The translations under genes and the position numbers were made by a program. 64,000 nucleotides of DNA from the IMG/VR virus record IMGVR_UViG_3300045988_120248, positions 1-64,000 of that record. One strand, 5' to 3'. This DNA comes from a virus. The notes beneath the pieces were generated by a model. It made no database searches and was not told the DNA's origin. It worked only from the letters and a program-made list of their open reading frames with translations. Positions 1-13,926 of the stretch are shown piece after piece (the first letter of the stretch is position 1; every line of letters begins with the position of its first letter).

Positions 1-695
1 CGCCGGTTGCTCCCCTTTGATTTTCGGGAGAGCTGCCGTTGCAGTCTGGCAAGTTTCTTCTGGTTCTTGGATAGATACTTATGGTTTTGGTACTCCACGC
101 CATCGGAGGTGATTGCAAATGCTTTCAGCCCCATGTCGATGCCGACCACCGCCCCTGTAGACGGCAGCAGCTCGATCTCAACATCAGTACAGCAGAGCGA
201 TACGAAGTATTTGCCGCTTGGATTCTGTGATACTGTGGCAGAGAGGATTCTACCCTCAACCTTTCGACTGATACGGCATTTGACTTTGCCCAGTTTCGGC
301 AGTTGAACCGCGCCGTCCAAGACTTTGATGTTCGTACCTACGGCCTTGCTTTTATAGCTTTTGCGGTGGTCACGCTTGCTCTTGAATCGCGGGAACCCCG
401 GCTTCTCGCCAGATTTTACTCGACGGAAGAAATTCTGGTATGCAGCATCCAAGTCCTTTAGCGAAGATTGAAGCGCGGTTGCGTCAACCTCTTTCAGCCA
501 CTCAAGTGATTCCTTCAGATGCGTTAGTTCTTTGTCTTGCCGAAAGCGTGTAGGAGCCTTTCCGTTTTCTCTATACTGCGCGATGCGTTCAGCGAGGAAG
601 TAGTTGTACACGAACCGGGCGCAACCGAAAGTTCGGCATATTAAGTTTTCCTGTTCCGTTGTCGGATATATCCGAAACCTATACGCACGTTCCAT
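1..695 (-). CDS. tnpB: TnpB (IS200/IS605-family OrfB, RNA-guided nuclease), N-terminal part; 3' end lies beyond the window edge
   Basis: Reverse-strand translation from the ATG at 695 reads MERAYRFRIYPTTEQENLICRTFGCARFVYNYFLAERIAQYRENGK...GAVVGIDMGLKAFAITSDG. This is the typical TnpB N-terminus with the RuvC-I GIDxG motif. It is absent from the ORF track because it is open at the edge. Confidence 0.85.
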   Translation of the reverse strand, partial: MERAYRFRIYPTTEQENLICRTFGCARFVYNYFLAERIAQYRENGKAPTRFRQDKELTHLKESLEWLKEVDATALQSSLKDLDAAYQNFFRRVKSGEKPGFPRFKSKRDHRKSYKSKAVGTNIKVLDGAVQLPKLGKVKCRISRKVEGRILSATVSQNPSGKYFVSLCCTDVEIELLPSTGAVVGIDMGLKAFAITSDGVEYQNHKYLSKNQKKLARLQRQLSRKSKGSNR

Positions 696-932: not shown

Positions 933-1196
933 TCAAATCTGCACAACGGCAGACTTGTACAGTTTCTTCACACCGTTCACAACGACTACCTCCCGGTTCT
1001 GTGAAACGATTTTCCTCCCATAGGAATTTATCGGCGAAATATCATTCGCGTCACAGAAAGCCTCCAGCGCCGCCAGATCGCCTGGTTTCAGCGGCAATCC
1101 AGTCGAGGCGGAAATAAATTCGTTTTCTTGGTTTATCCGGTACTCGCCGGGTTTGTAGAACATCGGCATCCCTCCAATCTCATCCCATTCTAACAT
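933..1196 (-). CDS. hypothetical protein (87 aa; alternative start at 1163 behind GGAGGG)
   Basis: ORF track. The internal ATG at 1163 has the better RBS. Confidence 0.5.
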   Translation of the reverse strand: MLEWDEIGGMPMFYKPGEYRINQENEFISASTGLPLKPGDLAALEAFCDANDISPINSYGRKIVSQNREVVVVNGVKKLYKSAVVQI

Positions 1197-1229
1197 GTGG
1201 ATTCTGAAATTTCTACATGACTCGGAAAT

Positions 1230-1478
1230 TTAGGCGGGATTGCAGAGTTCATAACCGTACCGCTTGATGTGGGAAAGCGGATAGTACAGATTCTCAGCCC
1301 GCGAAATCCATACCGGATTCTTGCGGTTGCTGATTCTTCCTTTTTCGAGCACGATGTTTTGACCACGCTTCTGAACTGTGATTTTCGCACCAAGCGGGAG
1401 ATTTTGCAGACTGTTCGGTTTTTTCCTATCAGCAGCCTTTTGCGCCGCATTGTTCCGGCAATCTTCTCGCCATTCCAA
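1230..1478 (-). CDS. hypothetical protein (82 aa, TTG start)
   Basis: ORF track. Its composition is more protein-like than the overlapping R/S/K-rich frame 1190..1495. Confidence 0.45.
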   Translation of the reverse strand: MEWREDCRNNAAQKAADRKKPNSLQNLPLGAKITVQKRGQNIVLEKGRISNRKNPVWISRAENLYYPLSHIKRYGYELCNPA

Positions 1479-1510
1479 CGCCCATTCATCGTCACGATGG
1501 GAAAGCAGAT

Positions 1511-1819
1511 TCAGAATGGATACCGGGCAGTCACGCTCACACGGCCCATGGATTCATCCATGTCCTTGTAACCAAAGTTGCAGTATTCGCGGCTGTCTAC
1601 GCTCGTCAGGCACACGCCAGCGAAAACGTATGGCGTCCGGCCAGGTCTGGTTCTCTCACAAGCGCCGTACCACGTCGCGCCCACCATTGCGGACTTCAAA
1701 ACGCGGCATTTGTCCCCGGTTTCTTCATTGTTCCATGTGTACAGATCGTCGCACTCTGCTTTGCGGTCGATGTTGCCCTTTCTATCGTAGAATTTCGCAC
1801 ACTGCCAAGTCCAGCCCAT
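1511..1819 (-). CDS. hypothetical protein (102 aa)
   Basis: ORF track; RBS GGGAGG upstream of the ATG; first gene behind motif copy 1. Confidence 0.6.
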   Translation of the reverse strand: MGWTWQCAKFYDRKGNIDRKAECDDLYTWNNEETGDKCRVLKSAMVGATWYGACERTRPGRTPYVFAGVCLTSVDSREYCNFGYKDMDESMGRVSVTARYPF

Positions 1820-1863
1820 TTTATGTACCTCCCAGTTTTCTTGGTTTTCCTGTTCTGCTTTTG

Positions 1864-1891
1864 TATCTACCGGAAGCGGGAACTTTGTCCC
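1864..1891 (-). promoter_or_regulatory. repeated promoter-like motif, copy 1 (with hairpin)
   Basis: The minus strand reads GGGACA-aagttcccgcttccgg-TAGATA. It is embedded in the hairpin TCTACCGGAAGCGGGA/TCCCGCCTCCGGTAGA. Confidence 0.55.
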
Positions 1892-1908
1892 GCCTCCGGT
1901 AGATATTT

Positions 1909-3108
1909 TTACTTTTCAATGTCCTTGCAGATGTCTGTGGAGTATTCACCGACTGAAATCTTCCATTTCTCTCCGCTGCTCGTCCAACCGATTCGCGGCT
2001 TTTTGTTGACGGTTTTACCGGTAGCCTGGTTTTTCAACGTGACGGTTGCAGCCGTGGCTTTGACGACCTCCCACGTGTCCGGAACCCATGCACCGGCCTG
2101 AAGGGTGCTGACGGTGAATTCCTCGCCGACCTTGAACGGGTGCGTCGGCTTTACCTCTTCCTCGGCTTTGACGATCTCCAAAATCTCAGCGTAGGCGGCA
2201 GTCAGATTGAATCCGTTCGGGGTGCGATAGATAATGTTTTTCGGGCCGGTTCGCAGGACAGTGCAGTCGTTGTAATGCTTGATCTTCACGACATAACCTG
2301 GCTTGATGTTTTCCTTGCTGAACTGCACGCCGCCCAGCTCGTCGATGCAGGACTGATAATAGCAGAGGCGGGAAATCTCGGAGTCCAGACGCTCTTCTGC
2401 GTCTTCAATCCAGCGCTCGATCTCTGCACGCTCGATAGGCGTACCATCGAAGCGCTTCTGCTGTTCTCCCATTCCGTCGCATTCCAGCATAGCATGGTAG
2501 TGGTCGAGATTCTTCTGGATGGCCTTGATGTTCTTCTGCGCGTCTTTCACGCGGCGGTCGCAGAATGCCTTATCCTTGGAATTTTCCAGATTTGCTGTTC
2601 TGCGTGCGACTTCCGCCCGCTGCGCATAATACTCGGATTTTTTGAACTCTTCGAATCCACGGTCAAACGCGGCAAACATACGCTCGCGCTGCCGGGTGAA
2701 CGCGCGGCCTGCGGACGTGTTGATGTTGGGCTGGGTGAAGAACGCAATATCGCCGCGCCTGGCGTTGATGGGCTTTTGCAGCTGTTCGCCGCGTTGCTCT
2801 GCTGCATCGGCGCGCGCGTCCATGCGCTCGGCTCGTTCTTCCGCGCGGGCTGCTTTGCGCTCCATTTTTTCCTCGAAGGAAAGAAGCTCACCCGTCTTTC
2901 CCTGATTCTCCGCGCCAAGGCTCTTTGCAACCTGTTCTGCGCGCCAGAGGTTCGGGATTTTTGCGCGGCTGACCCAACAGCCGCCGTATCTTGAAAAGAG
3001 GAAGGTGCTTTTGATGGTGGATTTTTGATCGTCAGAAAGCGCCTGGTATTCGGATTTATCAAAATGAAGCTCCAGCTTCTCGGTTTCTCGGTTGATGATG
3101 TAATACAT
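1909..3108 (-). CDS. hypothetical protein, coiled-coil rich (399 aa); possibly DUF3560-like
   Basis: ORF track; RBS GGGAGA. The central R/A/E-rich helical segment resembles DUF3560 proteins of plasmids and ICEs. This is from memory and weak. Confidence 0.6.
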   Translation of the reverse strand: MYYIINRETEKLELHFDKSEYQALSDDQKSTIKSTFLFSRYGGCWVSRAKIPNLWRAEQVAKSLGAENQGKTGELLSFEEKMERKAARAEERAERMDARADAAEQRGEQLQKPINARRGDIAFFTQPNINTSAGRAFTRQRERMFAAFDRGFEEFKKSEYYAQRAEVARRTANLENSKDKAFCDRRVKDAQKNIKAIQKNLDHYHAMLECDGMGEQQKRFDGTPIERAEIERWIEDAEERLDSEISRLCYYQSCIDELGGVQFSKENIKPGYVVKIKHYNDCTVLRTGPKNIIYRTPNGFNLTAAYAEILEIVKAEEEVKPTHPFKVGEEFTVSTLQAGAWVPDTWEVVKATAATVTLKNQATGKTVNKKPRIGWTSSGEKWKISVGEYSTDICKDIEK

Positions 3109-3142
3109 GGTTTTTCTCCCTTCTTATCTAAAATCGTGCGAT

Positions 3143-3352
3143 TCAAAGTCTTCTATGGTCACGTTCTTCTTGTGCAACTTGTTCTATGTGCGCCCGGACA
3201 CACTGCGGAAGATCCTGTTTGTAGTAGGTGATTTCTCCGCTAGAGGATATGTGGGCGACCGTCTGATAGTCGTGATTTACCTCTTTCGCCCTGTTCCATA
3301 CCGTCAGCCCATTTCCGAGATACCCAAAGCCGAGTCTGTAGTCATCTTTCAT
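3143..3352 (-). CDS. hypothetical protein (69 aa)
   Basis: ORF 3143..3373, with the start moved to the ATG at 3352 behind GGGAGAAAA. Confidence 0.5.
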   Translation of the reverse strand: MKDDYRLGFGYLGNGLTVWNRAKEVNHDYQTVAHISSSGEITYYKQDLPQCVRAHIEQVAQEERDHRRL

Positions 3353-3548
3353 GGCGGTTTTCTCCCTTCTCATCCTTGCCGAGTTCGTATGCTTCCATCA
3401 GGGCGTCCCGAAGTCCCCAAACAGCAACATTGAGAAAGTCCTCGCTGTCTGAGTTGCGCGTTTTCAAGTCTCCACGATCTGCAACGGGCGGCATATGCTG
3501 CATGGCAATTTCCAGAAGCTTACGTTCCGCTTTTTTGCTGTATTTCAT
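3342..3548 (-). CDS. hypothetical protein (68 aa)
   Basis: ORF track; RBS GGAGGTG; behind motif copy 2. Confidence 0.6.
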   Translation of the reverse strand: MKYSKKAERKLLEIAMQHMPPVADRGDLKTRNSDSEDFLNVAVWGLRDALMEAYELGKDEKGENRHER

Positions 3549-3579
3549 GGTTGCACCTCCGGTTTCTGTTCTGGTTTTA

Positions 3580-3607
3580 TATCTACGGGAAAAGGCGGGA
3601 TTGTCCC
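3580..3607 (-). promoter_or_regulatory. repeated promoter-like motif, copy 2 (with hairpin)
   Basis: The minus strand reads GGGACA-atcccgccttttcccg-TAGATA. The first box sits in the hairpin GGCGGGA-ttg-TCCCGCC. Confidence 0.55.
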
Positions 3608-3620
3608 GCCATTTTTAAAA

Positions 3621-4283
3621 TCAGGCGCTGAGAATGTCGTAGACCTCCTGCGTTTCATAGCGGATGACGGCGCGACCCTGATCGTCCTCCCCATCGTACA
3701 TCGGCCCGCAGAAGTTCTTGAGCTTCGGCGCGCCCTGCAATTCTGCCCGGCACGATGTGCTGTGGAACTCGCCGGAAGTCTCAAATGCTTTTTTTAAGTG
3801 TTCAGCAGTTTCATACGTTTCGACAATCATACGAGGCTGCGGGTCATCCGGGTTCATGCTGACGACCTTGTAGACCTTACCCTTCTGCTGAATTTCGGAC
3901 AGGTGAACGCGCTCGGATTCTTCGGAAATCTTCTGCTCCTGCGGGAATCCATCAACCAGACCGTAGAACATATTCTTGTCAAAGCAAAGGAAGCTTCTGG
4001 GCTGCTCCCATGTTGTCTCTTGCCACCCGGAGAAGATTGCCACGGGCTTTGTACCATAGACGCGCATTCCATAGACTGAGCGGCCACCGCGCTTTTTGAA
4101 GTAGATCGTCAGCGCGTCTTTGTATTGTGCATAAGGCTTGATATCTGCGGAATGTGCGTTGATGTGCAAAAAGTACACACCGCCGAACTCACTTTCGGTT
4201 ACGATGGTCATTCTGGGATTCTTGGAACCGGCTGCTGCGTTCACAGCATCGGCGATTTCCTGGAAAATTTCGAGTTGCGTCAT
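3621..4283 (-). CDS. hypothetical protein (220 aa)
   Basis: ORF 3621..4439, with the start moved to MTQLEIF (ATG at 4283) behind AGGAGG. Confidence 0.65.
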   Translation of the reverse strand: MTQLEIFQEIADAVNAAAGSKNPRMTIVTESEFGGVYFLHINAHSADIKPYAQYKDALTIYFKKRGGRSVYGMRVYGTKPVAIFSGWQETTWEQPRSFLCFDKNMFYGLVDGFPQEQKISEESERVHLSEIQQKGKVYKVVSMNPDDPQPRMIVETYETAEHLKKAFETSGEFHSTSCRAELQGAPKLKNFCGPMYDGEDDQGRAVIRYETQEVYDILSA

Positions 4284-4326
4284 TGTATGAAACCTCCTGT
4301 TTTTCTTGGTTTTCTCTACACCTATA

Positions 4327-4354
4327 TATCTACCGGCGCAGCGACATTTGTCCC
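4327..4354 (-). promoter_or_regulatory. repeated promoter-like motif, copy 3 (with hairpin)
   Basis: The minus strand reads GGGACA-aatgtcgctgcgccgg-TAGATA. The hairpin arms are ACCGGCGCA/TGCGCCGGT. Confidence 0.55.
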
Positions 4355-4371
4355 GTTGCGCCGGTATTTTT

Positions 4372-4638
4372 TTATTCGACTTCCTGCTCGGAGATTTCCC
4401 AACTGTAAACCGTGGCCTGCTCCAGATAGTCGCGCCCACACCGTCCGAGGTGAATGCTCATGGGTTCGTCCCACGACATATCCTCGTCCCAGAAATCTTC
4501 GTCGTACTCCGCGCGGATGGCTCCGGCTCCGGCCACGATCTGCGCGCGGGCTTTCTCGATCTTTTTAAAAACGCCAAGGACTTCCACGCCCTCATTGTCT
4601 GGCGTATCCCAATGGTGAACCACTACAAAAACTTGCAT
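4372..4638 (-). CDS. hypothetical protein (88 aa)
   Basis: ORF track; RBS GGAGGAAAAA. Confidence 0.6.
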   Translation of the reverse strand: MQVFVVVHHWDTPDNEGVEVLGVFKKIEKARAQIVAGAGAIRAEYDEDFWDEDMSWDEPMSIHLGRCGRDYLEQATVYSWEISEQEVE

Positions 4639-4651
4639 GATTTTTCCTCCA

Positions 4652-4810
4652 TCAAATGTAGTACCAGACGATGAACTTATTTTCTCTGCCGTCGGCGGAC
4701 TGCCACGGCGTCATGTGCGCCTTGCGGCGCTGCTTTTTGCGAGCCGCCACAAATGCGGCGGCTTGCTGTTCTGTGCTGAAAAATTCAAAGGTTTTGCGGT
4801 ACTGGTTCAT
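4652..4810 (-). CDS. hypothetical small protein (52 aa; below the ORF-track cutoff)
   Basis: Own translation: MNQYRKTFEFFSTEQQAAAFVAARKKQRRKAHMTPWQSADGRENKFIVWYYI. RBS GGGAGGA. It fills the gap between flanking genes. Confidence 0.5.
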   Translation of the reverse strand: MNQYRKTFEFFSTEQQAAAFVAARKKQRRKAHMTPWQSADGRENKFIVWYYI

Positions 4811-4822
4811 GGTGATTCCTCC

Positions 4823-5176
4823 CTATGCAATCTGCTCGGCAGGCTCTGCAAATTCCTGCGAAATTTTGAAAAGCACCATTTTTTTGAGTGCTTGCCTGCT
4901 CATGGTTTTTTCGTCGTAGCTGTTCGGCCTGTCCCAGACGCGGACGCGAAAAACGCCGTTGTCCATGTCTGCGATTTCGCGGTATATGCAGATCGTCAAG
5001 CTACCAGTGAAACAGATCTTTAGGGCGTTCAGCGTGCTTGCATCGCCCCGGAAGATCTTCATGCCTGAATCAAACAGCTTCGCGGCGGTTTCTTCGGAAA
5101 ATGCAAGGGCGTGCTGCTCGACGTTTTCAAAACAGCCGAAGACGTTTTTTGCGTCGTAGTTCGCAATGAATTCCAT
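4823..5176 (-). CDS. hypothetical protein (117 aa)
   Basis: ORF 4823..5224, with the start moved to MEFIANYD (5176) behind AGAGGAGG. Confidence 0.6.
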   Translation of the reverse strand: MEFIANYDAKNVFGCFENVEQHALAFSEETAAKLFDSGMKIFRGDASTLNALKICFTGSLTICIYREIADMDNGVFRVRVWDRPNSYDEKTMSRQALKKMVLFKISQEFAEPAEQIA

Positions 5177-5190
5177 GTTGCTGCCTCCTC

Positions 5191-5520
5191 TTACCTCTGC
5201 GGCACATCGGGTAATGGCATCCAATGTGTAGTGCGTTTTCCGAGGCGACTGTATGTTCCTGCGTGAGTGTAATAAACTTCTCCAACAAATACACCGTCCG
5301 TAGCGATCACTCGCTGCCCAATCTTCGGGCTTTCACGCTCTACCCTAATCCAGTGATCGTTTCCGCCAAATTCGTCAATATCGCCCATGCAGGCTCCGCA
5401 ATGCGCACAGAACGGCGTGATGTCTTTGACTTCCGCCCCGCATTCTGAGCAGTGAGGCTCCCCGGATTCGTTGTATACCCATTCGCCGAACTTCGGCCAT
5501 GCTGCTTTTTTGTTTTCCAT
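5191..5520 (-). CDS. zinc-ribbon + DUF551-like protein (109 aa)
   Basis: CSECGAEV..CAHCGAC zinc ribbon. The C-terminus, ending ..THWMPLPDVP, is typical of phage DUF551. The start at 5520 lies behind GAGGGGG. Confidence 0.6.
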   Translation of the reverse strand: MENKKAAWPKFGEWVYNESGEPHCSECGAEVKDITPFCAHCGACMGDIDEFGGNDHWIRVERESPKIGQRVIATDGVFVGEVYYTHAGTYSRLGKRTTHWMPLPDVPQR

Positions 5521-5534
5521 TTTTCCGCCCCCTC

Positions 5535-5648
5535 TCACAGAATGAACTCGATTAGCGAGTCCGCGCACAGGATAACGATGAACATGACTGCGATGGCCGC
5601 GCCGGTGAGGAACATCTGAAAGCCAGAAGATTTATAATAGTTTTTCAT
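5535..5648 (-). CDS. small hydrophobic protein (37 aa)
   Basis: Own translation: MKNYYKSSGFQMFLTGAAIAVMFIVILCADSLIEFIL. RBS GGAGGC; one predicted TM helix; behind motif copy 4. Confidence 0.45.
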   Translation of the reverse strand: MKNYYKSSGFQMFLTGAAIAVMFIVILCADSLIEFIL

Positions 5649-5689
5649 GTGTAATTGCCTCCGTTTCGGTAGTTTTCTTTACATTTATT

Positions 5690-5717
5690 ACTCTACCGAT
5701 AAGGCGGGATTTGTCCC
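5690..5717 (-). promoter_or_regulatory. repeated promoter-like motif, copy 4 (with hairpin)
   Basis: The minus strand reads GGGACA-aatcccgccttatcgg-TAGAGT. Hairpin: GGCGGGA-tttg-TCCCGCC. Confidence 0.5.
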
Positions 5718-5734
5718 GCCCTTTTGCCGGATTT

Positions 5735-5878
5735 TTAACTATTTTCGAGCTTCCACGCTGCCCAAATCTCCGGCACATCTTTGCCGAGATTCAGCCGTTT
5801 GAAACAGAACATCATGAACCGGACAAATTCGTCCATGTCATCGACTTTTCCAAGAAGTTCTCTGAATTCGTTTTCCAT
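5735..5878 (-). CDS. small conserved protein, paralog family 'F.RF..FC..RL...IW..W' (47 aa)
   Basis: MENEFRELLGKVDDMDEFVRFMMFCFKRLNLGKDVPEIWAAWKLENS. RBS AAAGGAG. Paralogs are at 11215..11406 and 34312..34488. Confidence 0.6.
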   Translation of the reverse strand: MENEFRELLGKVDDMDEFVRFMMFCFKRLNLGKDVPEIWAAWKLENS

Positions 5879-5891
5879 GGTATTTTCTCCT

Positions 5892-6680
5892 TTACTGCTC
5901 AAGCGCCTTTTTCGGCGCATATCTGTTGATGAAATATTTCTGGCCTTTCGGCGTTACCTTGGTCGTGCGGTCAATCACGGCTCCTTCTTTGGCAATGCGC
6001 GGCGTTTCTTTAACGAAGAACAAGCCAAGCTCCATAGCTCTTTGCGTCGGCATGTTGTAATCGCTGCCCGATTTGATGAGATATCCGTCCCGACGCAAAA
6101 CTTCATAGAGTCGATTTCCGCCGATGTCTGTGCCGTTTTGCGCAAGCAGCTTCGCCATGTCCCGAATGAGGATGTTTGTGTCCGCACCGGTGACGGCTTC
6201 GGCGAAGAATACCGCAGGCGCGTCGGCCTTGACCTTTTCTTCCAGCGCTCTGCGCTTTTGCTGCTCCATTTTGAGCGTAGTTGCAAGCTGGATGATGTAA
6301 TCAGGGTCTGTCAGAGTACGCTCGATGACTTCTGGTGTCATGTACGCGCCATGGGTTCTGACTGACGGAAGAATTTCTGCTGTTACCCAACGCTTGAACC
6401 GCTTCGCACCCGGCAATTTGCTGCACAGGATAAGGGAATACAGGCCGCTTTCGTTGATAACGGTTAATCCACGGTTCGGAATTTCAAAGGTGGCGTTTTG
6501 CCCCTTTTGAATTACCATCTTGTCCTCTGGGTCTACATGGTCGGCAATCGCCGATTTTGCGTCAGCGTAGCCAAGCGCCGTCGCTGAATCTTTCCCAACA
6601 AACCAGATTGCACCGTTAATCCAAACAGCGCGGATTTCACCAAACTCTGGATTGCGGAAGGTTGTCACTTCAAGCTTCAA
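5892..6680 (-). CDS. phage antirepressor (Bro-N domain + KilAC/ANT C-terminal domain)
   Basis: N-terminus F..FGEIRAVWINGAIWFVGKDSATALGY (Bro-N). C-terminal part ..IRDMAKLL..NRLYEVLRRDGYL.. (KilAC-like). TTG start behind GAAGGAG. Confidence 0.8.
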   Translation of the reverse strand: MKLEVTTFRNPEFGEIRAVWINGAIWFVGKDSATALGYADAKSAIADHVDPEDKMVIQKGQNATFEIPNRGLTVINESGLYSLILCSKLPGAKRFKRWVTAEILPSVRTHGAYMTPEVIERTLTDPDYIIQLATTLKMEQQKRRALEEKVKADAPAVFFAEAVTGADTNILIRDMAKLLAQNGTDIGGNRLYEVLRRDGYLIKSGSDYNMPTQRAMELGLFFVKETPRIAKEGAVIDRTTKVTPKGQKYFINRYAPKKALEQ

Positions 6681-6813
6681 AATTCTACACTCCTTCGATC
6701 ATGTCTTTGGGGATTCCCCTCTACATCCAGCATAACAAGCGGTGCAAATGTTTTTTTACATTGTTATGTCTACCTAAAAAAGGGTATAAAAATCCCCTGC
6801 GCAAAGATTCCAC

Positions 6814-6842
6814 TTGCACAGAGGGATAAAATCGGGTATAAT
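6814..6842 (+). promoter_or_regulatory. sigma-A-type promoter TTGCAC-17-TATAAT, opposite to the surrounding genes
   Basis: TTGCAC at 6814-6819, a 17-nt spacer, TATAAT at 6837-6842. Confidence 0.55.
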
Positions 6843-6848
6843 GAATTT

Positions 6849-6936
6849 ACCCGATTCAAGCCTTGCGCTTGTGGGTGGGATTCCTCCGTTCTGTCGTTCC
6901 GCCAAGATTGAGCAGAACGGGGGAATTTTATTTTTT
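6849..6936 (+). ncRNA. candidate ~85-90 nt antisense small RNA
   Basis: Lies between the promoter at 6814-6842 and the intrinsic terminator CCGTTCTG(6886-6893)/CAGAACGG(6913-6920) plus TTTTATTTTTT. The terminator overlaps the stop of the RHH gene on the other strand. No RBS or convincing ORF. Confidence 0.4.
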
Positions 6937-7104
6937 GATTTTGCCGTGCTGTTCGGAGATGCCGTTTCTGACTACTTCTGATCGTGACAGGGAATACTCT
7001 TTGCAACATTCATCGAGTTTTTCAAGCGTTTCTTTGTCCATTCTCACGCGCAGCATATAATCTTTTGTGTTCTCCGACTTCGGGCGGCCTTTGGGTGCAA
7101 CCAT
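6928..7104 (-). CDS. ribbon-helix-helix (CopG/Arc-like) DNA-binding protein (58 aa)
   Basis: Own translation: MVAPKGRPKSENTKDYMLRVRMDKETLEKLDECCKEYSLSRSEVVRNGISEQHGKIKK. It shows the beta-alpha-alpha RHH pattern. RBS GAGGTG. Confidence 0.6.
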   Translation of the reverse strand: MVAPKGRPKSENTKDYMLRVRMDKETLEKLDECCKEYSLSRSEVVRNGISEQHGKIKK

Positions 7105-7205
7105 GTTTCACCTCACTTTCTGTTGCTACGAAAATTATATGCTGTAGCAACGGAAAAGTCAACCTTAAATTTCACGATCTCAGGAAAATTTTCTTTCTAT
7201 CTTTA

Positions 7206-7233
7206 TATCTACCAATAGCAAGTGATTTGTCCC
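7206..7233 (-). promoter_or_regulatory. repeated promoter-like motif, copy 8
   Basis: The minus strand reads GGGACA-aatcacttgctattgg-TAGATA, followed by TAAAGATAGAAAG. It lies about 100 nt upstream of the RHH gene. Confidence 0.5.
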
Positions 7234-7273
7234 AAAAAATCACATAAAATATGTGCCGCTATGATAAAAAGTA

Positions 7274-7298
7274 AGCCGTCCCAGATGGGGCGGCTTTT
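7274..7298. terminator. hairpin AGCCGTCCC-agat-GGGGCGGCT flanked by an A-run and a T-run (bidirectional terminator-like)
   Basis: Read directly from the sequence. Confidence 0.5.
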
Positions 7299-7326
7299 GT
7301 ATATGTGCGAATATTTATTCAAAAAC

Positions 7327-7361
7327 GTAACAATGTTTGCACATTGTGCGAACATTGTTAC
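7327..7361. repeat. 35-bp near-perfect palindrome GTAACAATGTTTGCACA-t-TGTGCGAACATTGTTAC
   Basis: 16 of 17 arm positions are complementary. A related half-site ACATTGTTA occurs near 6760. Confidence 0.8.
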
Positions 7362-7364
7362 ACC

Positions 7365-7418
7365 AGAGATAGAGAATAGAGATAGAGATAAGAGTATAGA
7401 GAAAGAGATAGAGATAGA
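7365..7418. repeat. purine tract of degenerate GATAGA repeats
   Basis: agagatagagaatagagatagagataagagtatagagaaagagatagagataga. Confidence 0.8.
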
Positions 7419-7492
7419 TTTAACAGTACCTGACGGTACTGTTCGTCAGCCCCGTTTTTACGAGGCCGACGAGTTGACACCACTTTTCGCTG

Positions 7493-7831
7493 CTAAGCCC
7501 TCAGAGGCTCTACTTGCCGCACAGAAAAGAAACGGGATAGTTTCATCCGGCAGAACCCGTTCACCGATTCTGCGGCCTCCAGCGGCTCGTCAGGGGCATT
7601 CTTATGGGTGACATACTTCCAAATTGGGAAAGACGCGACAGCGTGTTCACCCTTGCGGACGATGAAGCCACGCTGCTTCCAAGCGTTGAACGTGTGGATT
7701 TCTTCGGGGATTTCGAGTTTTTCGGTGCTTCCGTCCTCGTTTACCACGTCGATGAATCGGCCCGTGCCTTTGAGAATGCCGTCGTTCATTAACCGGACGG
7801 ATTCGCCAAGAATGATTGCTGCGTTAGTCAT
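7493..7831 (-). CDS. hypothetical protein, weak ArdC-N-like (ssDNA-binding) signature (112 aa)
   Basis: ..TFNAWKQRGFIVRKGEHAVASFPIW.. resembles the ArdC/DUF1738 core. RBS GGAGGTAC. Confidence 0.45.
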   Translation of the reverse strand: MTNAAIILGESVRLMNDGILKGTGRFIDVVNEDGSTEKLEIPEEIHTFNAWKQRGFIVRKGEHAVASFPIWKYVTHKNAPDEPLEAAESVNGFCRMKLSRFFSVRQVEPLRA

Positions 7832-7870
7832 GAGTAAGTACCTCCGTTTTGTCTTGTCTTTCTATCTTTA

Positions 7871-7897
7871 CTTCTACCGGAAATCGGCGTTTGTCCC
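7871..7897 (-). promoter_or_regulatory. repeated promoter-like motif, copy 5
   Basis: The minus strand reads GGGACA-aacgccgatttccgg-TAGAAG, followed by TAAAGATAGAAAG. Confidence 0.5.
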
Positions 7898-7910
7898 GCA
7901 CTGGATAAAG

Positions 7911-7935
7911 AAAAAACGCCGGAATTTCTTCCGGC
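7911..7935 (-). terminator. intrinsic terminator GCCGGAA-gaaa-TTCCGGC + T-run (minus strand)
   Basis: Follows the stop of 8005..8556 and precedes motif copy 5. Confidence 0.6.
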
Positions 7936-8004
7936 GCTGCGTTCCGTGTTATGTAATAATTAAAACCTGTTTCCTGCGGAATGGAGAACCGTTTCTCGCC
8001 CCCA

Positions 8005-8556
8005 TCAATCCCAGATGTGTTCTTGCAAGTATGCGTCCCACTCAGCATTTGCGGCTTTTAGCGCTTGCGCGTAGTCTCCACCGTTGACGATACTCTCAAG
8101 TGCTTTTCGGCCTGCGGCGGATTTCGCATAGTGTGGAGAATGCGACATTTTTTCCGCTTCCAGAAATGCGGCTGCGCGTGGATATTTCGTGCGCATGGCA
8201 TCCATGTCATACTGCGGACGTGGACGGAGACCAACGCCGGAATCTCCGCGTTCCATATTTGCATTGAATTCTTCGTCCCAGGCTTCAAGATCTGCTAACG
8301 CGGCTCGAATCTCTTTGAGTCCGGAAATTGCGTCGATTTTCTCTTGATACTCCCGCGCGTCGCGTTTCTTAGCTGCATCGCGTTCTGCAAAGTATTCCAA
8401 AATTTCTGGTTTTCGCTTTCTCAGGTTCGCCATAATTTCAGCACGCGCTGCCGGCTCGTTCGGGAGTATGCGCGCCCAAATTTTATCTGGATTAAGCCAG
8501 CAAAGATCATATCGCCTTACGATCTCCTCAATCGTCATTTCTTCTGCTTTTTTCAT
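8005..8556 (-). CDS. hypothetical protein (183 aa)
   Basis: ORF 8005..8592, with the start moved to MKKAEEM (8556). Confidence 0.6.
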   Translation of the reverse strand: MKKAEEMTIEEIVRRYDLCWLNPDKIWARILPNEPAARAEIMANLRKRKPEILEYFAERDAAKKRDAREYQEKIDAISGLKEIRAALADLEAWDEEFNANMERGDSGVGLRPRPQYDMDAMRTKYPRAAAFLEAEKMSHSPHYAKSAAGRKALESIVNGGDYAQALKAANAEWDAYLQEHIWD

Positions 8557-8570
8557 GCTGCCCCCGTCCT

Positions 8571-8876
8571 TTACTGCCATTTTGCGGCACACCGCGCAAG
8601 AACGCGCCCGTTTACGCTTCGAATGCTTACGGTTCCCTTGATAGCGTCGCCGTCCAAGCGTTCCGCCGGTTCAATGTAAACCGTGGTGATCGTCTCGTCC
8701 TGCGTGAAAAGGAACCCGTCACCATACTCCGTTTCTGCAACTTGCATAAAGTCGGGCAGTTCGATTTCTGTGTGGAGCCAAGTACCGGGGAAGTTTTCCT
8801 TCGCCTCGGCCTTGATTATGATTTTATCCGGAACGTTCCGGAAATCAGAACGGATGCGGTAAAGATGTGCAATCAT
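8571..8876 (-). CDS. hypothetical protein (101 aa)
   Basis: ORF 8571..8885. The second ATG (8876) is properly spaced from GGAGG. Confidence 0.55.
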   Translation of the reverse strand: MIAHLYRIRSDFRNVPDKIIIKAEAKENFPGTWLHTEIELPDFMQVAETEYGDGFLFTQDETITTVYIEPAERLDGDAIKGTVSIRSVNGRVLARCAAKWQ

Positions 8877-8937
8877 GGTGTTCATCCTCCAATTTTTTGT
8901 CGTATTTTATTTTGCTTCATCTGATGTTCTATCTTAT

Positions 8938-8965
8938 ATTCTACCATATTTTTTGGATTTGTCCC
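8938..8965 (-). promoter_or_regulatory. repeated promoter-like motif, copy 6
   Basis: The minus strand reads GGGACA-aatccaaaaaatatgg-TAGAAT, followed by ATAAGATAGAAC. Confidence 0.5.
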
Positions 8966-9003
8966 AGCTTTTTGTGAAAATTTTTCAACTTCTGAAATCT
9001 CTA

Positions 9004-9139
9004 GTTTTCTCGGTTTAGCTGGTTTCAGTGATCTGCTAGTTTTGTTGGTTTTTCCCGATTCCTGATTTTTTTGGTTTTCTCGGTTTCGCTCCGTCCATTT
9101 GTTTCCTTGGTTTTTTTGGTTTTTCTGGTTTTCTCGGTT
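9004..9139. repeat. T/G-rich spacer with three GTTTTCTCGGTT copies (9004, 9074, 9128); AAACC-rich on the coding strand
   Basis: Read directly. The ORF here (8882..9304, NQKNQKNQ...) is a low-complexity artefact. Confidence 0.7.
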
Positions 9140-9224
9140 CTGGTTTGCTTGATTCATCAAAAAGTGAATAATTATGCGCATAAAAGAGGCGCGGAAGTGA
9201 ATCACAACCGCGCCGCCGGGCGTA

Positions 9225-9569
9225 TCATATTTTGCGGTAAACGCAGCCCGTCCACGCTTGGCAGGTCGTGCCATCGCAGGTCGCGCCTCGCACCTTGCAG
9301 TCAATGCAGATCGGATTCAACGGCAGCGCGTCAGGCTCCAGCCACTTCACGCTGCGGACGTAGCCGCACAGCTCCGGGTTGTAGTCGTTTCTCTCGATGT
9401 ACTCACAGAGGACGCGCTGCACGTCGGCTTCTGCGCCGCCGTCGAGCGCCGCCGTGATGGGGAAGACGATCTCCGGGAAGACCGTCCCATACTCCGCAAC
9501 GCTGCGGTAGAAGTCGGCGGGGACGTAGGGCTTGCCGTTTACTCGGCCGAGAATCAAATCAATAATCAT
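9225..9569 (-). CDS. hypothetical protein (114 aa)
   Basis: ORF track; RBS AAAGGAG. Confidence 0.6.
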   Translation of the reverse strand: MIIDLILGRVNGKPYVPADFYRSVAEYGTVFPEIVFPITAALDGGAEADVQRVLCEYIERNDYNPELCGYVRSVKWLEPDALPLNPICIDCKVRGATCDGTTCQAWTGCVYRKI

Positions 9570-9623
9570 TTTGTTCGCTCCTTTTCATTGGCCGCGCTTC
9601 GTGCGCGGCTTTTTCTATCTTTA

Positions 9624-9650
9624 TATCTACGCGATTTTTCAATTTGTCCC
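9624..9650 (-). promoter_or_regulatory. repeated promoter-like motif, copy 7
   Basis: The minus strand reads GGGACA-aattgaaaaatcgcg-TAGATA, followed by TAAAGATAGAAAAAG. Confidence 0.5.
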
Positions 9651-9722
9651 GGCCATCGGCAAAAAATTTTCGGAGAACGCAAAAGAAAAAGCAGCGCCCG
9701 GCTTTCGCCAAGCGCTGCTATA

Positions 9723-9882
9723 CCCCGAAGTTTTCTGGGCGCTCTGTTCAGTTTTTCGGCTCCCGTCCATCAGCCCCGGAGTTTTCCGGTGTCCCTGTTC
9801 AGGCCGTCAGTCTCCCGGAGTTTTCGGACCTTCCTGTTCAGGCGGTAAGTCCCCAGAATTTCCGGGAGCCGTCTGTTCAGGC
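9723..9882. repeat. four tandem ~38-51 bp units, each a short palindrome (CCGGAgtttTCCGG-like) plus CTGTTCAGG
   Basis: Units start near 9723, 9774, 9814 and 9852. They span the stop codon of 9807..10328. Confidence 0.75.
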
Positions 9883-10328
9883 TTGAATTTTTCAAACGAA
9901 GATAACGCGGCCTGCTTGCGCTCGAATGCGTCGGACTCGGCTGCCGCCGCAGTTTCCAGCGCCCGGCGCGCCCAGGTGAGCGCGTCCGGATCTCCCGCAA
10001 GATTTGACGCCAAACTTGCAAGGCGCGCCACGTCTGCCGGAAGCGTCAGACCCTCACCGCCTGCCGCCTGCCCAGGCTGCGCCGCCTGGAAGATCTCGGC
10101 CGCAGGAGCTGCGCCGCCGTCCGCGTCGCCCCGCAGGCAGCCCGAAACGTAGGACGCCAGCGCCGCGTTGACCGTCTGGCCCCGCGCCGCGCACCACGCC
10201 CGGAACGCCTCGCCGTCTGCCTTGCCCACGCGCACGCCCAGCGTCACGCGGTTCGCCTGATCCCACTTATTTTGAGCGCGGCGCTCCGCGTCCGTCCGCG
10301 CCCCGTTTGGATTCTTTGCAATCGGCAT
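9807..10328 (-). CDS. RHH-like DNA-binding protein with A/G/P-rich tail (173 aa)
   Basis: N-terminus ..NKWDQANRVTLGVRVGKADGEAFRAWCAARGQTVNAALASYV.. fits the strand-helix-helix pattern. RBS GAGGA. Confidence 0.55.
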   Translation of the reverse strand: MPIAKNPNGARTDAERRAQNKWDQANRVTLGVRVGKADGEAFRAWCAARGQTVNAALASYVSGCLRGDADGGAAPAAEIFQAAQPGQAAGGEGLTLPADVARLASLASNLAGDPDALTWARRALETAAAAESDAFERKQAALSSFEKFKPEQTAPGNSGDLPPEQEGPKTPGD

Positions 10329-10366
10329 TTTAATGTATCCTCGCTTTCGTTTGCTTCTTGCCTTTT

Positions 10367-10394
10367 ATTCTACCGGCGCGGGCTGTTTTGTACC
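10367..10394 (-). promoter_or_regulatory. repeated promoter-like motif, copy 9 (variant GGTACA)
   Basis: The minus strand reads GGTACA-aaacagcccgcgccgg-TAGAAT. Confidence 0.45.
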
Positions 10395-10414
10395 ATCGGC
10401 AGAATGTACAAAAT

Positions 10415-10572
10415 ATACGGTTAATTTTTAGCGATTTTTTCATAAAATCGTGACTTCTGCATACGGTTGACCCAAAAACGGAGAAATCCTAACATTTTCC
10501 GCACGAATACGGTTAAGCTTATACAATGATACGGTTAAACATAACTTTTTAACCAATTTGACATACGGTTAA
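10415..10572 (+). promoter_or_regulatory. array of five direct repeats ATACGGTT(A/G)A (operator or iteron array)
   Basis: Copies at 10415, 10461, 10507, 10529 and 10563. The last lies inside the promoter spacer. Confidence 0.7.
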
Positions 10573-10586
10573 ACCTATACTATAAT
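10558..10586 (+). promoter_or_regulatory. consensus sigma-A promoter TTGACA-17-TATAAT
   Basis: TTGACA at 10558-10563 and TATAAT at 10581-10586, about 50 nt upstream of 10639. Confidence 0.75.
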
Positions 10587-10638: not shown

Positions 10639-11178
10639 ATGAAAAACTACAAAATCGCCAACATCAACCGCAACGCGCGCTACACAGTCACCCCCACGGA
10701 CCACGACGACGGGCACGCGGAGACGCGCGAAATGACCGGCGCGGAGCTGATCGACTTTACCAACGCGGCCGCGCACCTGTACGACATCCACGCCGAGGAG
10801 ATCACCGCCAAGCCGCAGGACACCGCCGAGATCATGCAGCAGGTCGGAGCCGTGGAACTCCCGCAGCGCGTCGCGCTGTACGTCACAGGCACGCAGGGAA
10901 CCGCCACCGCCACCGACAACGCCGCGCAGGTCGAGCGCGTCGCCCGCGATTTTTGCGGGTGGTTCGGCGGCGCGACGGCCCAGCAGAGCGCGGGCTATTG
11001 GCTGAGCGATTCCGCCGGACTGGTCCGCGAGGCCGTGACGATTGTATATGCCGCCTGCACCGCCGACCAGCTCCGGGACCGCCTGCCGGACGTGCTGACG
11101 CTGGCCCAGCAGATCAAAGCCGAGATGCAGCAGGAAGCCGTAACGATCACGATTGATCAAAAAATGTATATCATCTAA
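10639..11178 (+). CDS. hypothetical protein (179 aa)
   Basis: ORF track; RBS AAAGGAG. Confidence 0.65.
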   Translation: MKNYKIANINRNARYTVTPTDHDDGHAETREMTGAELIDFTNAAAHLYDIHAEEITAKPQDTAEIMQQVGAVELPQRVALYVTGTQGTATATDNAAQVERVARDFCGWFGGATAQQSAGYWLSDSAGLVREAVTIVYAACTADQLRDRLPDVLTLAQQIKAEMQQEAVTITIDQKMYII

Positions 11179-11214
11179 GGGAAGCAAGAACAAACCGAAG
11201 GGAGATAAAAGAGT

Positions 11215-11406
11215 ATGAACCAGACAACGGAATTTTTGAAACTGTACCAGAATGTGAAAGACAAGGAGCTGTTTGGACGCTTCTTGGTATTCTGCGCCGT
11301 GCGCTTGAAAATCGGTCAGGACACCGCGACCATCTGGGCCGCATGGCTGGACGCAAGACGCGCGGAAGCGGCTTACATGGCGGCACACGCCGCCGGGACA
11401 ACCTGA
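11215..11406 (+). CDS. small conserved protein, paralog family 'F.RF..FC..RL...IW..W' (63 aa)
   Basis: ..KELFGRFLVFCAVRLKIGQDTATIWAAWLD.. RBS GAAGGGAG. Confidence 0.6.
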   Translation: MNQTTEFLKLYQNVKDKELFGRFLVFCAVRLKIGQDTATIWAAWLDARRAEAAYMAAHAAGTT

Positions 11407-11420
11407 AAGGAGCCTACAAC

Positions 11421-12158
11421 ATGACAGAGTACAAATACACCATCAAGGACATCGAGAACATGAGCGCCGCCAATCTGGCCGACATGGCCGAGGAAGTCGA
11501 GACAATCAAAGATCATACGGTTTACTTCGTGGACTTCGGCGGCTATTTCGGTTTCTCTGCTTGCGTCTGCGCAGAGGGACAGCATATCAGATATGCGAAT
11601 GACTACGAACTGCACCACAAAGGCAAGAGCCGCGACGAACTGCGCGAGATTTACCGCCGGACGCTGAACGACAAACTTTTCACAGAATCCGAACTTGAAA
11701 CCGTCAGCAGTTACGAGGACAAACGCGCCAAGGAATACTATATTCGCAACCTTTACGCAATGCGCCGCCCGTATGTTTCAGCGTTTCACATCGGGCCCGC
11801 GCCGGATACGTCAGAAATGATTTATAGCCCCGTATTCATGGCATATTATCGGGATGCCGATTTCGTGCAGCATGGCGCGGAGCTTCTGCGGACGTTGACC
11901 GAGGCCGAACGCAAGAGCGCCGAATCATTCGACTACTGGAAAAGCGCATTTCTTTATGAAATGTTCAATCATGAATACGCGATCAACTGGCAAGCTGATT
12001 TTGACGTTTGCAGCTGCTTCGCCAACTGCGACGGCGTGAAAGATTACACCAACCCAAACGAACTTTTCACCGCCTGCCAATTCACCGACACGCAGAAAGC
12101 CGCATACATGGCCGCGCGGCGCGAATATCTCAAGAAACAGGAAGAAACGGAGGAATAA
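11421..12158 (+). CDS. hypothetical protein (245 aa)
   Basis: ORF 11343..12158, with the start moved to MTEYKYT behind AAAGGAG. Confidence 0.65.
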   Translation: MTEYKYTIKDIENMSAANLADMAEEVETIKDHTVYFVDFGGYFGFSACVCAEGQHIRYANDYELHHKGKSRDELREIYRRTLNDKLFTESELETVSSYEDKRAKEYYIRNLYAMRRPYVSAFHIGPAPDTSEMIYSPVFMAYYRDADFVQHGAELLRTLTEAERKSAESFDYWKSAFLYEMFNHEYAINWQADFDVCSCFANCDGVKDYTNPNELFTACQFTDTQKAAYMAARREYLKKQEETEE

Positions 12159-12161
12159 AAG

Positions 12162-12404
12162 ATGCTTGAAAATTTACCGATCAACATTAGTCCCACGGAT
12201 CGCCCGCAGTGGTACACACCCGCCGAGATCCGCGCCGCAGCCGCCGAGGGCCTGCGAATCGACTACAACGCCGGACGCGGGCACGTCATCCGCTGCCGCA
12301 AGGCCGCGAACGTCAGCGGCTGGATCACCGCCGTGACCGAGGCCGGATCAATCATCCGCGCATGGGCCGGAGAATTCACCGTCGCCGGGGAGGTGAGATC
12401 ATGA
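12162..12404 (+). CDS. hypothetical protein (80 aa)
   Basis: ORF track; RBS ACGGAGGA. Confidence 0.55.
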   Translation: MLENLPINISPTDRPQWYTPAEIRAAAAEGLRIDYNAGRGHVIRCRKAANVSGWITAVTEAGSIIRAWAGEFTVAGEVRS

Positions 12405-12703
12405 GCACCACAACCACCCAGCAGGCGCGCCGCCTGCCTATCCTGCACATCAACGCCGACGAGCGGCACGCGCTCGATACCTTCGGCGAGTGGTCCCCGG
12501 CAATGGCCCGCGCCTGCATGGAGCGCAACCACCTGAATTTTGACCACATCGAGCGGATCAACAACCACTTCGAGCTGCACAAGTGGGGAAGCGATACTGA
12601 CAGACGCTACCGCAAAGCCGCCGTAAACCGCGCTATAAAGGCCGTAGCGGCCAACCCTGCCGCATACCTGGCCGAAACCAACGGAGAGGAGAACAACACA
12701 TGA
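12401..12703 (+). CDS. hypothetical protein (100 aa)
   Basis: ATGA overlap with the upstream stop; RBS GGGGAGGTG. The longer R-rich N-terminal extension in the track is discarded. Confidence 0.55.
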   Translation: MSTTTTQQARRLPILHINADERHALDTFGEWSPAMARACMERNHLNFDHIERINNHFELHKWGSDTDRRYRKAAVNRAIKAVAANPAAYLAETNGEENNT

Positions 12704-12975
12704 AACGGATACAGATCATCATTGACGCGGCGGCTCTTCTGGCCGTCCTGACGGCCTGCACAAGCCCCAAGCAGGGACAGCCGACCGCAGACACCACCCC
12801 GGCCCAGATCGTAGCAGTGGAGCGCGTCAGCGCCGACACGGACGCCGTAACCGGCGAGGACACGCGCGGCGAGTGCTGGACGTGGTACACCGACGCCGGA
12901 GACTACAGCACCGGCGACCGCGTGCAGCTGACGTTTGACGGCTCCGCAGTCATCGACGCGATCCCGGCAGGCTGA
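12700..12975 (+). CDS. putative lipoprotein (91 aa)
   Basis: Signal peptide with the lipobox ..AVLTAC. Confidence 0.55.
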   Translation: MKRIQIIIDAAALLAVLTACTSPKQGQPTADTTPAQIVAVERVSADTDAVTGEDTRGECWTWYTDAGDYSTGDRVQLTFDGSAVIDAIPAG

Positions 12976-13071
12976 CGCACCACCAGCCGCCCCGGACACC
13001 CTAGCAGAGCCGCACCGGGCACCAAAGCGGCCCCGCCCCATACCATCAAAACGACAAAGGAGATCATAACC

Positions 13072-13797: not shown

Positions 13798-13810
13798 CCG
13801 CCCGCCAAGG

Positions 13811-13894: not shown

Positions 13895-13926
13895 GCACAC
13901 ACTCCCGCAGCCACTCCATATTATAT

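Follow-up and report, generated by a model that had tools for sequence, protein, structure and literature searches.

Nine promoter-like cassettes and a candidate cognate ECF-type sigma factor in a phage genome

Some bacteriophages redirect transcription through sigma cascades, as with gp28 and gp33/34 of SPO1 and gp55 of T4. Others use stoperators, which in cluster A mycobacteriophages are single 13- to 14-bp repressor sites identical to the operator. The sigma factors carried by phages have been surveyed (PMC9429907). Promoters of the extracytoplasmic function (ECF) type lie close to consensus and consist of a -35 block with an adjacent homopolymer tract, a 14- to 17-bp spacer, and a CGT-type -10 element; that of Bacillus subtilis SigW is TGAAAC-N16-CGTATA (PMC5758882). 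T4-like myoviruses carry composite promoter-terminator cassettes, the early-type promoter stem-loops (PeSLs) and their middle-type counterparts (PmSLs) (PMC2839356, PMC4122927). Here we describe a locus that resembles each of these systems in part. It lies in IMG/VR virus record IMGVR_UViG_3300045988_120248, of which positions 1 to 64,000 (the window) were analyzed, and consists of nine copies of a 27- to 28-nt cassette along a leftward array of small genes. We propose, with a probability of about 0.7, that the nine cassettes are phage-specific promoters read by host core RNA polymerase (RNAP) together with the phage's own ECF-like sigma factor, encoded at 13072-13797, and that they switch on this accessory arm after sigma-A-driven early expression.

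A two-box motif repeated along the leftward arm

All nine copies listed in a preliminary description of this DNA were present on the minus strand. The pattern GGGACA-N14-17-TAGA gave eight exact matches in the window, all of them on the minus strand between 1866 and 9650, where 0.18 were expected, and none of 100 shuffles contained eight matches. The ninth copy, at 10394, has GGTACA instead of GGGACA, a variant that is conserved among relatives. A two-block weight matrix was derived from 69 unique motif copies in the same phage family. With it, the nine copies scored 34 to 47 bits, and nothing else on either strand of the 64 kb exceeded 14 bits apart from register shifts of the nine sites. This finding agrees with the earlier remark that the motif was not seen elsewhere in the window. 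The coding regions of the window contained no copies. Structural-gene regions of 38 related contigs, about 780 kb in all, lacked the full-consensus motif and gave only four chance-like partial matches.

The box-to-box distance is constant, as had been described. In the window, 15 or 16 nt separate GGGACA from TAGA; among the family copies, 38 have the shorter and 30 the longer spacer. The distance from the motif end to the start codon, previously put at about 30 to 110 nt, is 32 to 102 nt in the window, and a ribosome-binding site and start codon follow 24 to 128 nt downstream (median, 43) in 62 of 68 unique family copies. Both boxes of the described motif were borne out, but the conserved block is longer than had been noted: it runs from a T/A-rich tract about 10 to 16 nt upstream through Y-GGGACAAW and an unconstrained N11-12 to CCGGTAGAWWTAWARRTRKAAR. 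The leader TAAAGATAGAAAG, reported for four copies, is exact only in copies 5 and 6; copy 8 has one mismatch, and the leader of copy 7 is merely related. In position, orientation, T/A tract, and spacing, the cassettes are promoter-like. Rfam contained no known RNA family at the cassettes or their leaders, and a literature search for the motif returned nothing relevant.

The array occupies 933-10328 on the minus strand and comprises about 10 transcription units, which together hold some 19 small genes, most of them orphans. Those with a recognizable family include a ribbon-helix-helix (RHH) repressor and a BRO/KilAC anti-repressor; most others have none. Cassette 9 (10367-10394; 34 bits) reads GGTACAAAA-N12-GGTAGAAT and heads g1 (10328-9807, RHH-like by eye), the first unit of the arm. 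Cassette 8 (9624-9650; 45.7 bits) heads g2 (9569-9225); cassette 7 (8938-8965), detected by both motif and weight matrix, heads g3-g4 (8885-8005); and cassette 6 (7871-7897; 47.3 bits) heads g5 (7831-7493), the product of which looks by eye like the ArdC N-terminal domain. Cassette 5 (7206-7233) marks the upstream edge of an RHH/anti-repressor module, g6-g8 (7104-5735). The remaining four are associated with hairpins and head g9-g13 (5647-4372; cassette 4, 5690-5717), g14 (4283-3621; cassette 3, 4327-4354), g15-g17 (3548-1909; cassette 2, 3580-3607), and g18-g19 (1819-933; cassette 1, 1864-1891).

Several repeats lie between these units. The 39-nt tandem repeats at 9774-9882 extend across the 3' end of g1 and just past its stop codon, and an (A)nCCA-rich repetitive tract occupies 9000-9200, upstream of cassette 7. 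The interval from g5 to cassette 5 has, at 7330-7418, a perfect palindrome of about 30 nt, GTAACAATGTTTGCACATTGTGCGAACATTGTTAC, adjoined by (AGAGAT)n repeats (7365-7418).

Relatives were collected by a motif scan of IMG/VR, which returned at least 118 loci, most of them single chance hits. At least 14 related contigs of 80 to 120 kb, from one gut data set, carried 5 to 12 copies per fetched stretch, always on one strand and in one orientation, and two loci on one contig (L037 and L091) together carried 15 copies over 17 kb. The leftward arm of the relatives is about 28 kb long. Its far end encodes tRNA-Met, -Gln, -Pro, and -Gly and, by eye, HU, MazF/PemK, and a NifS-like cysteine desulfurase (L095 7446-12583, L054 8898-12930, and L045). 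One further conserved motif copy in the relatives overlaps the 3' end of the NifS-like gene, whose tail ...KRDKT is encoded by GGGACAAAAC.

The promoter class and its candidate sigma factor

Sigma-A promoters of the usual form are present in this phage. A perfect one, TTGACA-17-TATAAT (12 of 12 matches), lies at 10558-10586 on the plus strand and heads the rightward early operon, and a nested one, TTGACT-17-TATAAT (11 of 12 matches), lies at 7134-7162 on the minus strand for the RHH gene g6. The array thus contains promoters of both the sigma-A and the cassette type. Because the phage has perfect and near-perfect sigma-A promoters, the host consensus appears canonical and the cassette motif appears to be a separate promoter class. 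Depending on whether the -10 region is aligned as TAGAWW or TAWARR, T occupies the would-be -7 position in 25% or 0% of the copies. The coexisting promoters and the missing -7 T led us to reject a host sigma-A promoter.

The cassettes resemble ECF promoters in being bipartite and near consensus, with a short -35 element that ends in AC and is followed by a homopolymer tract. The distance from GGGAC to (C/G)GTA is 14 to 15 nt, within the 14- to 17-bp range of ECF spacers. The -10 element is built on (C/G)GTA: copies 2 and 8 have CGTA and the other seven have GGTA, the first position is G in 64% and C in 13% of the family, and the distant lineage L163 has exactly CGTATA. They differ from ECF promoters in having GGGAC rather than GGAAC or GAAAC at -35, an adjacent tract that is A-rich rather than T-rich, and a conserved block that extends about 18 nt beyond the -10 element.

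Two other readers of the motif were considered and rejected. Promoters for single-subunit or virion RNAPs (T7, N4, and YonO types) do not fit a spacer of free sequence, and the window showed no large RNAP gene, its 832-aa protein encoded at 21655-24156, which was judged by eye and not scanned, resembling an SNF2-type helicase. Reverse complementation of the box gives TTTGTCCC, which shares TGTC with the 0A box, TGTCGAA; the remainder differs, and a Spo0A_C-like gene is absent from the window. A small array protein of a relative (L091 1205-1564, minus strand) looks by eye like the Spo0A C-terminal domain and has no counterpart in the window.

The gene at 13072-13797 on the plus strand is the last of seven in the early operon (10639-13797), and no plus-strand terminator was found from the sigma-A promoter to 14579. 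Scans with Pfam and PHROGs identified no conventional sigma factor or RNAP among about 40 window proteins, and single-sequence phmmer searches of the PDB with three candidates gave nothing useful. The AlphaFold (AF2) model of the 13072-13797 product, with a mean predicted local distance difference test score of 76, contains two helical domains and a disordered linker at residues 140-179. When the model was compared with the PDB using Foldseek, nearly all of the top 26 matches were whole ECF sigma factors and the rest were other sigma-70-family factors, with about 200 columns aligned; the matches include Mycobacterium tuberculosis SigH and SigL as well as RpoE, CnrH, AlgU, SigW, and BldN.

An exhaustive HMMER search yielded 145 homologues. 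Among the 85 that were scanned, Pfam Sigma70_ECF was matched by 44 (E ≤ 0.01; best, 1.4e-7) and Sigma70_r4_2 by 34. The family profile matched CnrH in the PDB at 5e-6 (profile positions 78-239 to CnrH residues 27-183), RpoE at 5e-5, AlgU at 1e-4, and SigW at 0.015. On the strength of the fold model, the Foldseek and family-profile matches, and the Pfam matches of its homologues, we assign the protein as a putative ECF-type sigma factor that is very divergent and is extended at its N terminus by some 50 to 80 aa. The model, Foldseek, and the family profile all indicate sigma-2 and sigma-4 domains only, as in ECF systems. Near-identical sigma genes number in the hundreds in public metagenomes, and where the family is named at all in those sources it is called "hypothetical protein."

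The surroundings of the gene have features of their own. A match to RAGATH-5, a ribozyme candidate in Rfam, lies at 12992-13047 on the plus strand (54.6 bits against a gathering threshold of 50), 25 nt upstream of the sigma start, and could therefore take part in processing or regulation of the sigma mRNA. An island of 64.6% GC (12000-14300), in a phage of about 50% GC, takes in the sigma gene and the final part of the early operon. The island is followed by about 1 kb without convincing open reading frames, in which (CGCGTG)n repeats occupy 13927-13973 and about 16 consecutive G residues lie near 14620-14636.

To compare promoter boxes across greater distances, seven further lineages were fetched as contigs encoding sigma homologues at 33 to 42% identity; a related-locus search with one homologue, P0125, returned no viral contig. 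In six of them, small genes headed by a bipartite, lineage-specific motif are oriented divergently from the sigma gene. In L160 (P0125), the genes and a single motif copy, GGGACAAAT..TGTCAC, are codirectional with the sigma gene. Full arrays were seen only on the longer contigs, with 26 genes in L163 and 8 in L167. L163 (P0128) has 12 copies of GGTTGCCAAA-N-GGCGTATA (0.01 expected), and L167 (P0139) has 4 of CGGTTCTAAA-N13-AYGCA (0.04 expected). Three copies each were found of GGTTACCAWT..GGCAATAGG in L171 (P0129) and GGGACAAA..GYGTW in L162 (P0126), and two each of GGTTCTAW..CCCCATATGG in L165 (P0133) and CCGGACAW..TGGCACTATAA in L169 (P0144).

Across the lineages, the -35 box tracks the predicted region-4 recognition helix. 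The helix SKSxxxRR occurs with GGGACAAA (window, P0125, and P0126), SQRAVSKR with GGTTCTA (P0133 and P0139), SHQALSKR with GGTTGCC (P0128), and THPAISKR with GGTTACC (P0129). Covariation of this kind is predicted by a cognate sigma/promoter pair. The suggestion that the 13072-13797 product is the cognate factor thus gains support from its divergent ECF-type family and from the covarying helix, and the proposed non-sigma-A, ECF-type character of the cassettes gains support from the same two observations together with the sigma-A promoters used elsewhere in the phage. These data point to the 13072-13797 product as the probable partner of the boxes.

Two of these lineages show further peculiarities. 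In L165 (737-1089) and L171 (991-1705), duplicated promoters flank the leader of the first leftward gene (Pfam GP88), with long GC-rich short-repeat arrays (GGACGGACAGACGG... and GCGGAGCGCGGAGCG...) separating them. L165 also has a second sigma-like gene (4579-5250, plus strand; Pfam Sigma70_r4) downstream of the ECF-like one, which hints at a multistep sigma cascade in some lineages.

Several points weigh against the proposed pairing. The covariation comes from about three independent changes in related phages, so shared descent alone could yield it. Pfam finds a generic C-terminal helix-turn-helix (HTH) in the window protein itself, with Sigma70_r4_2 at E = 0.0036 and 17.3 bits against a cutoff of 25.7. 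The Foldseek E values are weak (0.03 to 1) and the TM-scores are low (0.2 to 0.3), which is not decisive alone, although the flexible linker would depress both. The canonical ECF -35 AAC is replaced by GAC, and by TAC in copy 9. No plus-strand cassette precedes the sigma gene, as autoregulation would require, and Pfam scans recognized no anti-sigma domain in the operon proteins. In both respects the locus is unlike typical cellular ECF systems, from which it also differs in that the sigma factor is phage borne, has an N-terminal extension, and ends a sigma-A-driven early operon. Another protein of the conserved early operon could be the true specificity factor. Finally, about 40 kb of the phage genome lies beyond the window and was inspected in part in relatives.

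The same evidence bears on three other explanations. In sigma appropriation or class II activation, the sigma-A holoenzyme would occupy a weak TAGAWW or TAWARR element while a phage protein (the 13072-13797 product or another early one) bound GGGACAAA, as T4 MotA and AsiA act at middle promoters. The first box is asymmetric, single, and centered near -30 in the manner of a Mot box, the scores of the window protein are mainly those of a generic C-terminal HTH, and T4-like phages do carry stem-loop cassettes on Mot-type promoters, the PmSLs (PMC4122927). However, the -7 T required by sigma-A is missing from the -10 region, and the protein family has a sigma-2-like as well as a sigma-4 domain and matches whole ECF sigma factors end to end. 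The second box also varies between lineages, which would be unexpected were host sigma-A its reader. We give appropriation a small chance.

Variation between lineages likewise argues against a host alternative sigma regulon (ECF or other) borrowed by the phage, an explanation that a bipartite, near-consensus architecture would suit, as it suits alternative-sigma promoters generally. Lineages whose sigma homologues are 33 to 42% identical carry different motifs in comparable sigma-linked gene sets, which points to a phage-borne determinant, and the sigma-like gene is conserved beside the array in every lineage examined. A borrowed regulon is, in our judgment, quite unlikely.

The third explanation makes the cassettes repressor sites that silence the arm in the lysogen, like stoperators. 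As with stoperators, there are many asymmetric sites in one orientation along a transcribed arm, and the phage has an integrase and XRE-type regulators, as a temperate phage would. The cassettes differ from stoperators in having two boxes with a free spacer of constant 15 to 16 nt, an upstream T/A-rich tract, a placement at promoter distance (24 to 128 nt) from start codons, and no copies inside the coding regions of the window. Moreover, the divergent control region has a different repeat as its likely operator. The sequence TTAACCGTAT, which is unrelated to the cassette boxes, has eight matches at one mismatch or fewer (2.06 expected), and five of them cluster at 10415-10572 on the minus strand, one reading TCAACCGTAT. 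One copy lies in the spacer of the 10558-10586 sigma-A promoter and another lies 21 nt upstream of cassette 9; these copies are probably repressor operators. Silencing through the cassettes is, on this evidence, very unlikely.

The GGTACAAAA box of cassette 9 is also the right half of an inverted repeat, TTTTGTAC-N12-GTACAAAA (10395-10420, minus strand), which may be an extra operator, for example for the RHH-like g1 product.

Hairpins and modular shuffling at the cassettes

Hairpins had been described in copies 1 to 4, and all four were recovered. Copy 1 lies inside an 18-bp hairpin at 1864-1905 (-34.2 kcal/mol, z = -9.1), and copies 2, 3, and 4 are fused to hairpins at 3594-3610 (-14.9 kcal/mol, z = -2.1), 4331-4366 (-23.5 kcal/mol, z = -4.8), and 5696-5730 (-18.0 kcal/mol, z = -3.0). 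Copies 5 to 9 showed no significant folding. The stop codon of the upstream gene lies 16 to 23 nt from the first box in exactly copies 1 to 4, which fits the earlier view of these four as fused terminator-plus-promoter cassettes. Copies 5, 6, and 8 have separate terminators further upstream. Intrinsic terminators on the minus strand close unit 9 upstream of cassette 8 (9690-9719) and unit 7 upstream of cassette 6 (7915-7938). A hairpin terminator at 7273-7296, between g5 and cassette 5, was listed by the scan on the plus strand; read on the minus strand, it likewise precedes a T-rich run.

Each fused hairpin has its 5' arm upstream of the -35 box, holds the box itself (ACAAA) in its loop, and fills the spacer with its 3' arm, which abuts GGTAGA. 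The -10 box is outside the stem or at its foot. Paralogous copies have unrelated arms that are nonetheless complementary, as first noted from the window. A hairpin with the box in its loop was found in 27 of the 69 unique family copies, and the same arrangement occurs in L163 and L169 with their own boxes. Most of the fused hairpins have no clean U-tract. From their placement, we suggest that the hairpins act as terminators or 3'-end stabilizers of the upstream unit, fitted into the unconstrained parts of the promoter.

Hairpin promoters in single-stranded DNA, such as the Frpo/ssi type of a conjugative leading region that had been put forward, or hairpin promoters for an N4-type virion RNAP, would account for the strong hairpins of copies 1 to 4 with their differing but complementary arms, but they have almost no probability left: terminase, portal, and recombination genes mark the element as a tailed phage, a significant hairpin is missing from copies 5 to 9, no gene for a large RNAP was seen in the window, and folding puts the -35 box in the loop with the -10 box outside or at the stem foot and so rebuilds no duplex promoter.

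The cassettes also coincide with breaks in homology. Contigs whose structural protein is 98 to 99% identical to that of the window differ in array gene content. Of 118 internal homology ends, which are not independent events, 20 fell inside the 27- to 28-nt motifs (2.8 expected) and 40 lay within 45 nt of them (11.7 expected). One case is particularly clear. The window has a 1.8-kb RHH/anti-repressor module between copies 5 and 4, where L030 and L051 have a single hybrid promoter, which aligns on its upstream side with the flank of copy 5 and on its downstream side with that of copy 4; the alignments overlap within the cassette. This overlap is the expected footprint of homologous recombination between cassettes.

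These joints bear on the suggestion that the cassettes are mobile promoter-stem-loop elements of the PeSL kind. The likeness holds: copies 1 to 4 are composites of a promoter and a putative stem-loop terminator, repeated cassettes flank small, variable orphan genes in a hyperplastic region, gene content varies between very close relatives, and homology breakpoints fall in the cassettes. It is a second property compatible with phage-sigma promoters, however, and not a rival to them. Unlike PeSLs and PmSLs, which belong to T4-like myoviruses and use sigma-70 early or Mot-box (MotA) middle promoters, the cassettes would represent a phage-sigma promoter class in a phage of the Clostridia host group, probably a siphovirus with a distant SPbeta-like terminase. 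In addition, their -35 box lies in the hairpin loop and only some copies are fused to hairpins.

The phage, a proposed circuit, and its implications

Gene content indicates that the window derives from a temperate tailed phage. From 10639 rightwards, the plus strand carries genes for replication, recombination, nucleotide metabolism, and packaging, among them DnaD- and DnaC-like loaders, a Holliday-junction resolvase, a dUTPase, and, by eye, a RecT-like protein. The large terminase (52014-53867, plus strand) is only about 25% identical to those of SPbeta-like phages, and a portal gene was recognized by eye at 54220-55974 (plus strand); the phage is probably a siphovirus with a distant SPbeta-like terminase. 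One relative, at 58%, comes from human feces. The only hints of a host came from a terminase scan of genome contigs, which found three contigs of metagenome-assembled genomes in bins labeled Clostridia, Oscillospiraceae, and Staphylococcaceae. The host is thus uncertain, and we treat the phage as a gut Clostridia phage. A megablast of 14.5 kb against 50,697 phage records gave only a 35-nt match, in the flank of an insertion sequence (IS).

Other features of the window were noted in passing. A lysogeny-type island at 31892-34801 (minus strand), inside the rightward arm, encodes what from sequence appear to be a tyrosine integrase with an N-terminal zinc ribbon and two XRE-type proteins, one of which has an HTH and a membrane tail. 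Between the portal gene and the one that follows it, Rfam has a match to int-alpA RNA at 55985-56049 on the plus strand (52 bits; gathering threshold, 35.8). At the left end, a gene that by eye is IS200/IS605-type TnpB-like (1-694, minus strand) runs off the window at the site where the promoter array of the relatives continues, and it is preceded by 11-nt tandem repeats, AACTTGCTTAC x3.6, at 787-852. Gene g18 (1511-1819, minus strand) encodes 102 aa in the window. The same gene, starting MGWTWQCAKFYDRKG, encodes 194 to 196 aa in relatives (L091 8641-9231, L002 7695-8285, and L054 2677-3261), which suggests a frameshift or truncation in the window.

We propose the following circuit. Host sigma-A would initiate at 10558-10586, probably under the control of the TTAACCGTAT operators, and the rightward early operon would be transcribed, with the sigma factor made from its last gene. 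The sigma factor would then turn on the entire leftward arm of small accessory genes, its region 4 contacting Y-GGGACAAA and its region 2 contacting the (C)GGTAGAWW block 12 to 13 bp downstream. Transcription would start within the conserved TAWARR stretch and leave a 5' untranslated region of about 35 to 45 nt. Each unit would be closed by a hairpin, and where no more than about 20 nt separate the end of a gene from the promoter that follows, as at copies 1 to 4, the hairpin would be folded over the promoter itself. Being repeated and alike, the cassettes could in turn be substrates for homologous recombination, by which the phages would acquire and lose gene modules.

Such a circuit would follow the logic of phage sigma cascades, in which an early gene driven by the host sigma yields a replacement sigma that redirects host core RNAP to a phage class of promoters. 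It would differ from the SPO1 and T4 cascades in that the regulon seen here is an accessory, orphan-gene arm rather than the structural late genes, that the sigma factor is ECF-like, and that relatives have diversified into several promoter specificities. The system brings together three known elements (a phage sigma cascade, ECF-type promoters, and PeSL-like cassettes) with a sigma family that is unannotated, diversified, and associated with lineage-specific promoter codes.

A broader picture can be offered only tentatively. Gut Clostridia phages might possess an unrecognized, fast-diversifying family of ECF-like sigma factors with orthogonal promoter codes (GGGACAAA, GGTTGCC, GGTTACC, GGTTCTA, and CCGGACA), each serving one hyperplastic, orphan-gene arm. 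A promoter embedded in a hairpin would then combine the roles of promoter, insulator or terminator, and recombination joint. The result would be a gene-cassette system resembling an integron but driven by homologous recombination and a sigma factor of its own.

The analysis proposes a regulatory logic for an unstudied and abundant group of large temperate gut phages, in which the promoter motifs could be used directly to delimit transcription units. The lineage-specific sigma/promoter pairs would be candidate orthogonal expression parts for Clostridia. The idea behind PeSLs, that regulatory repeats drive modular gene shuffling, would extend beyond T4-like phages and to a promoter class that is not that of the host.

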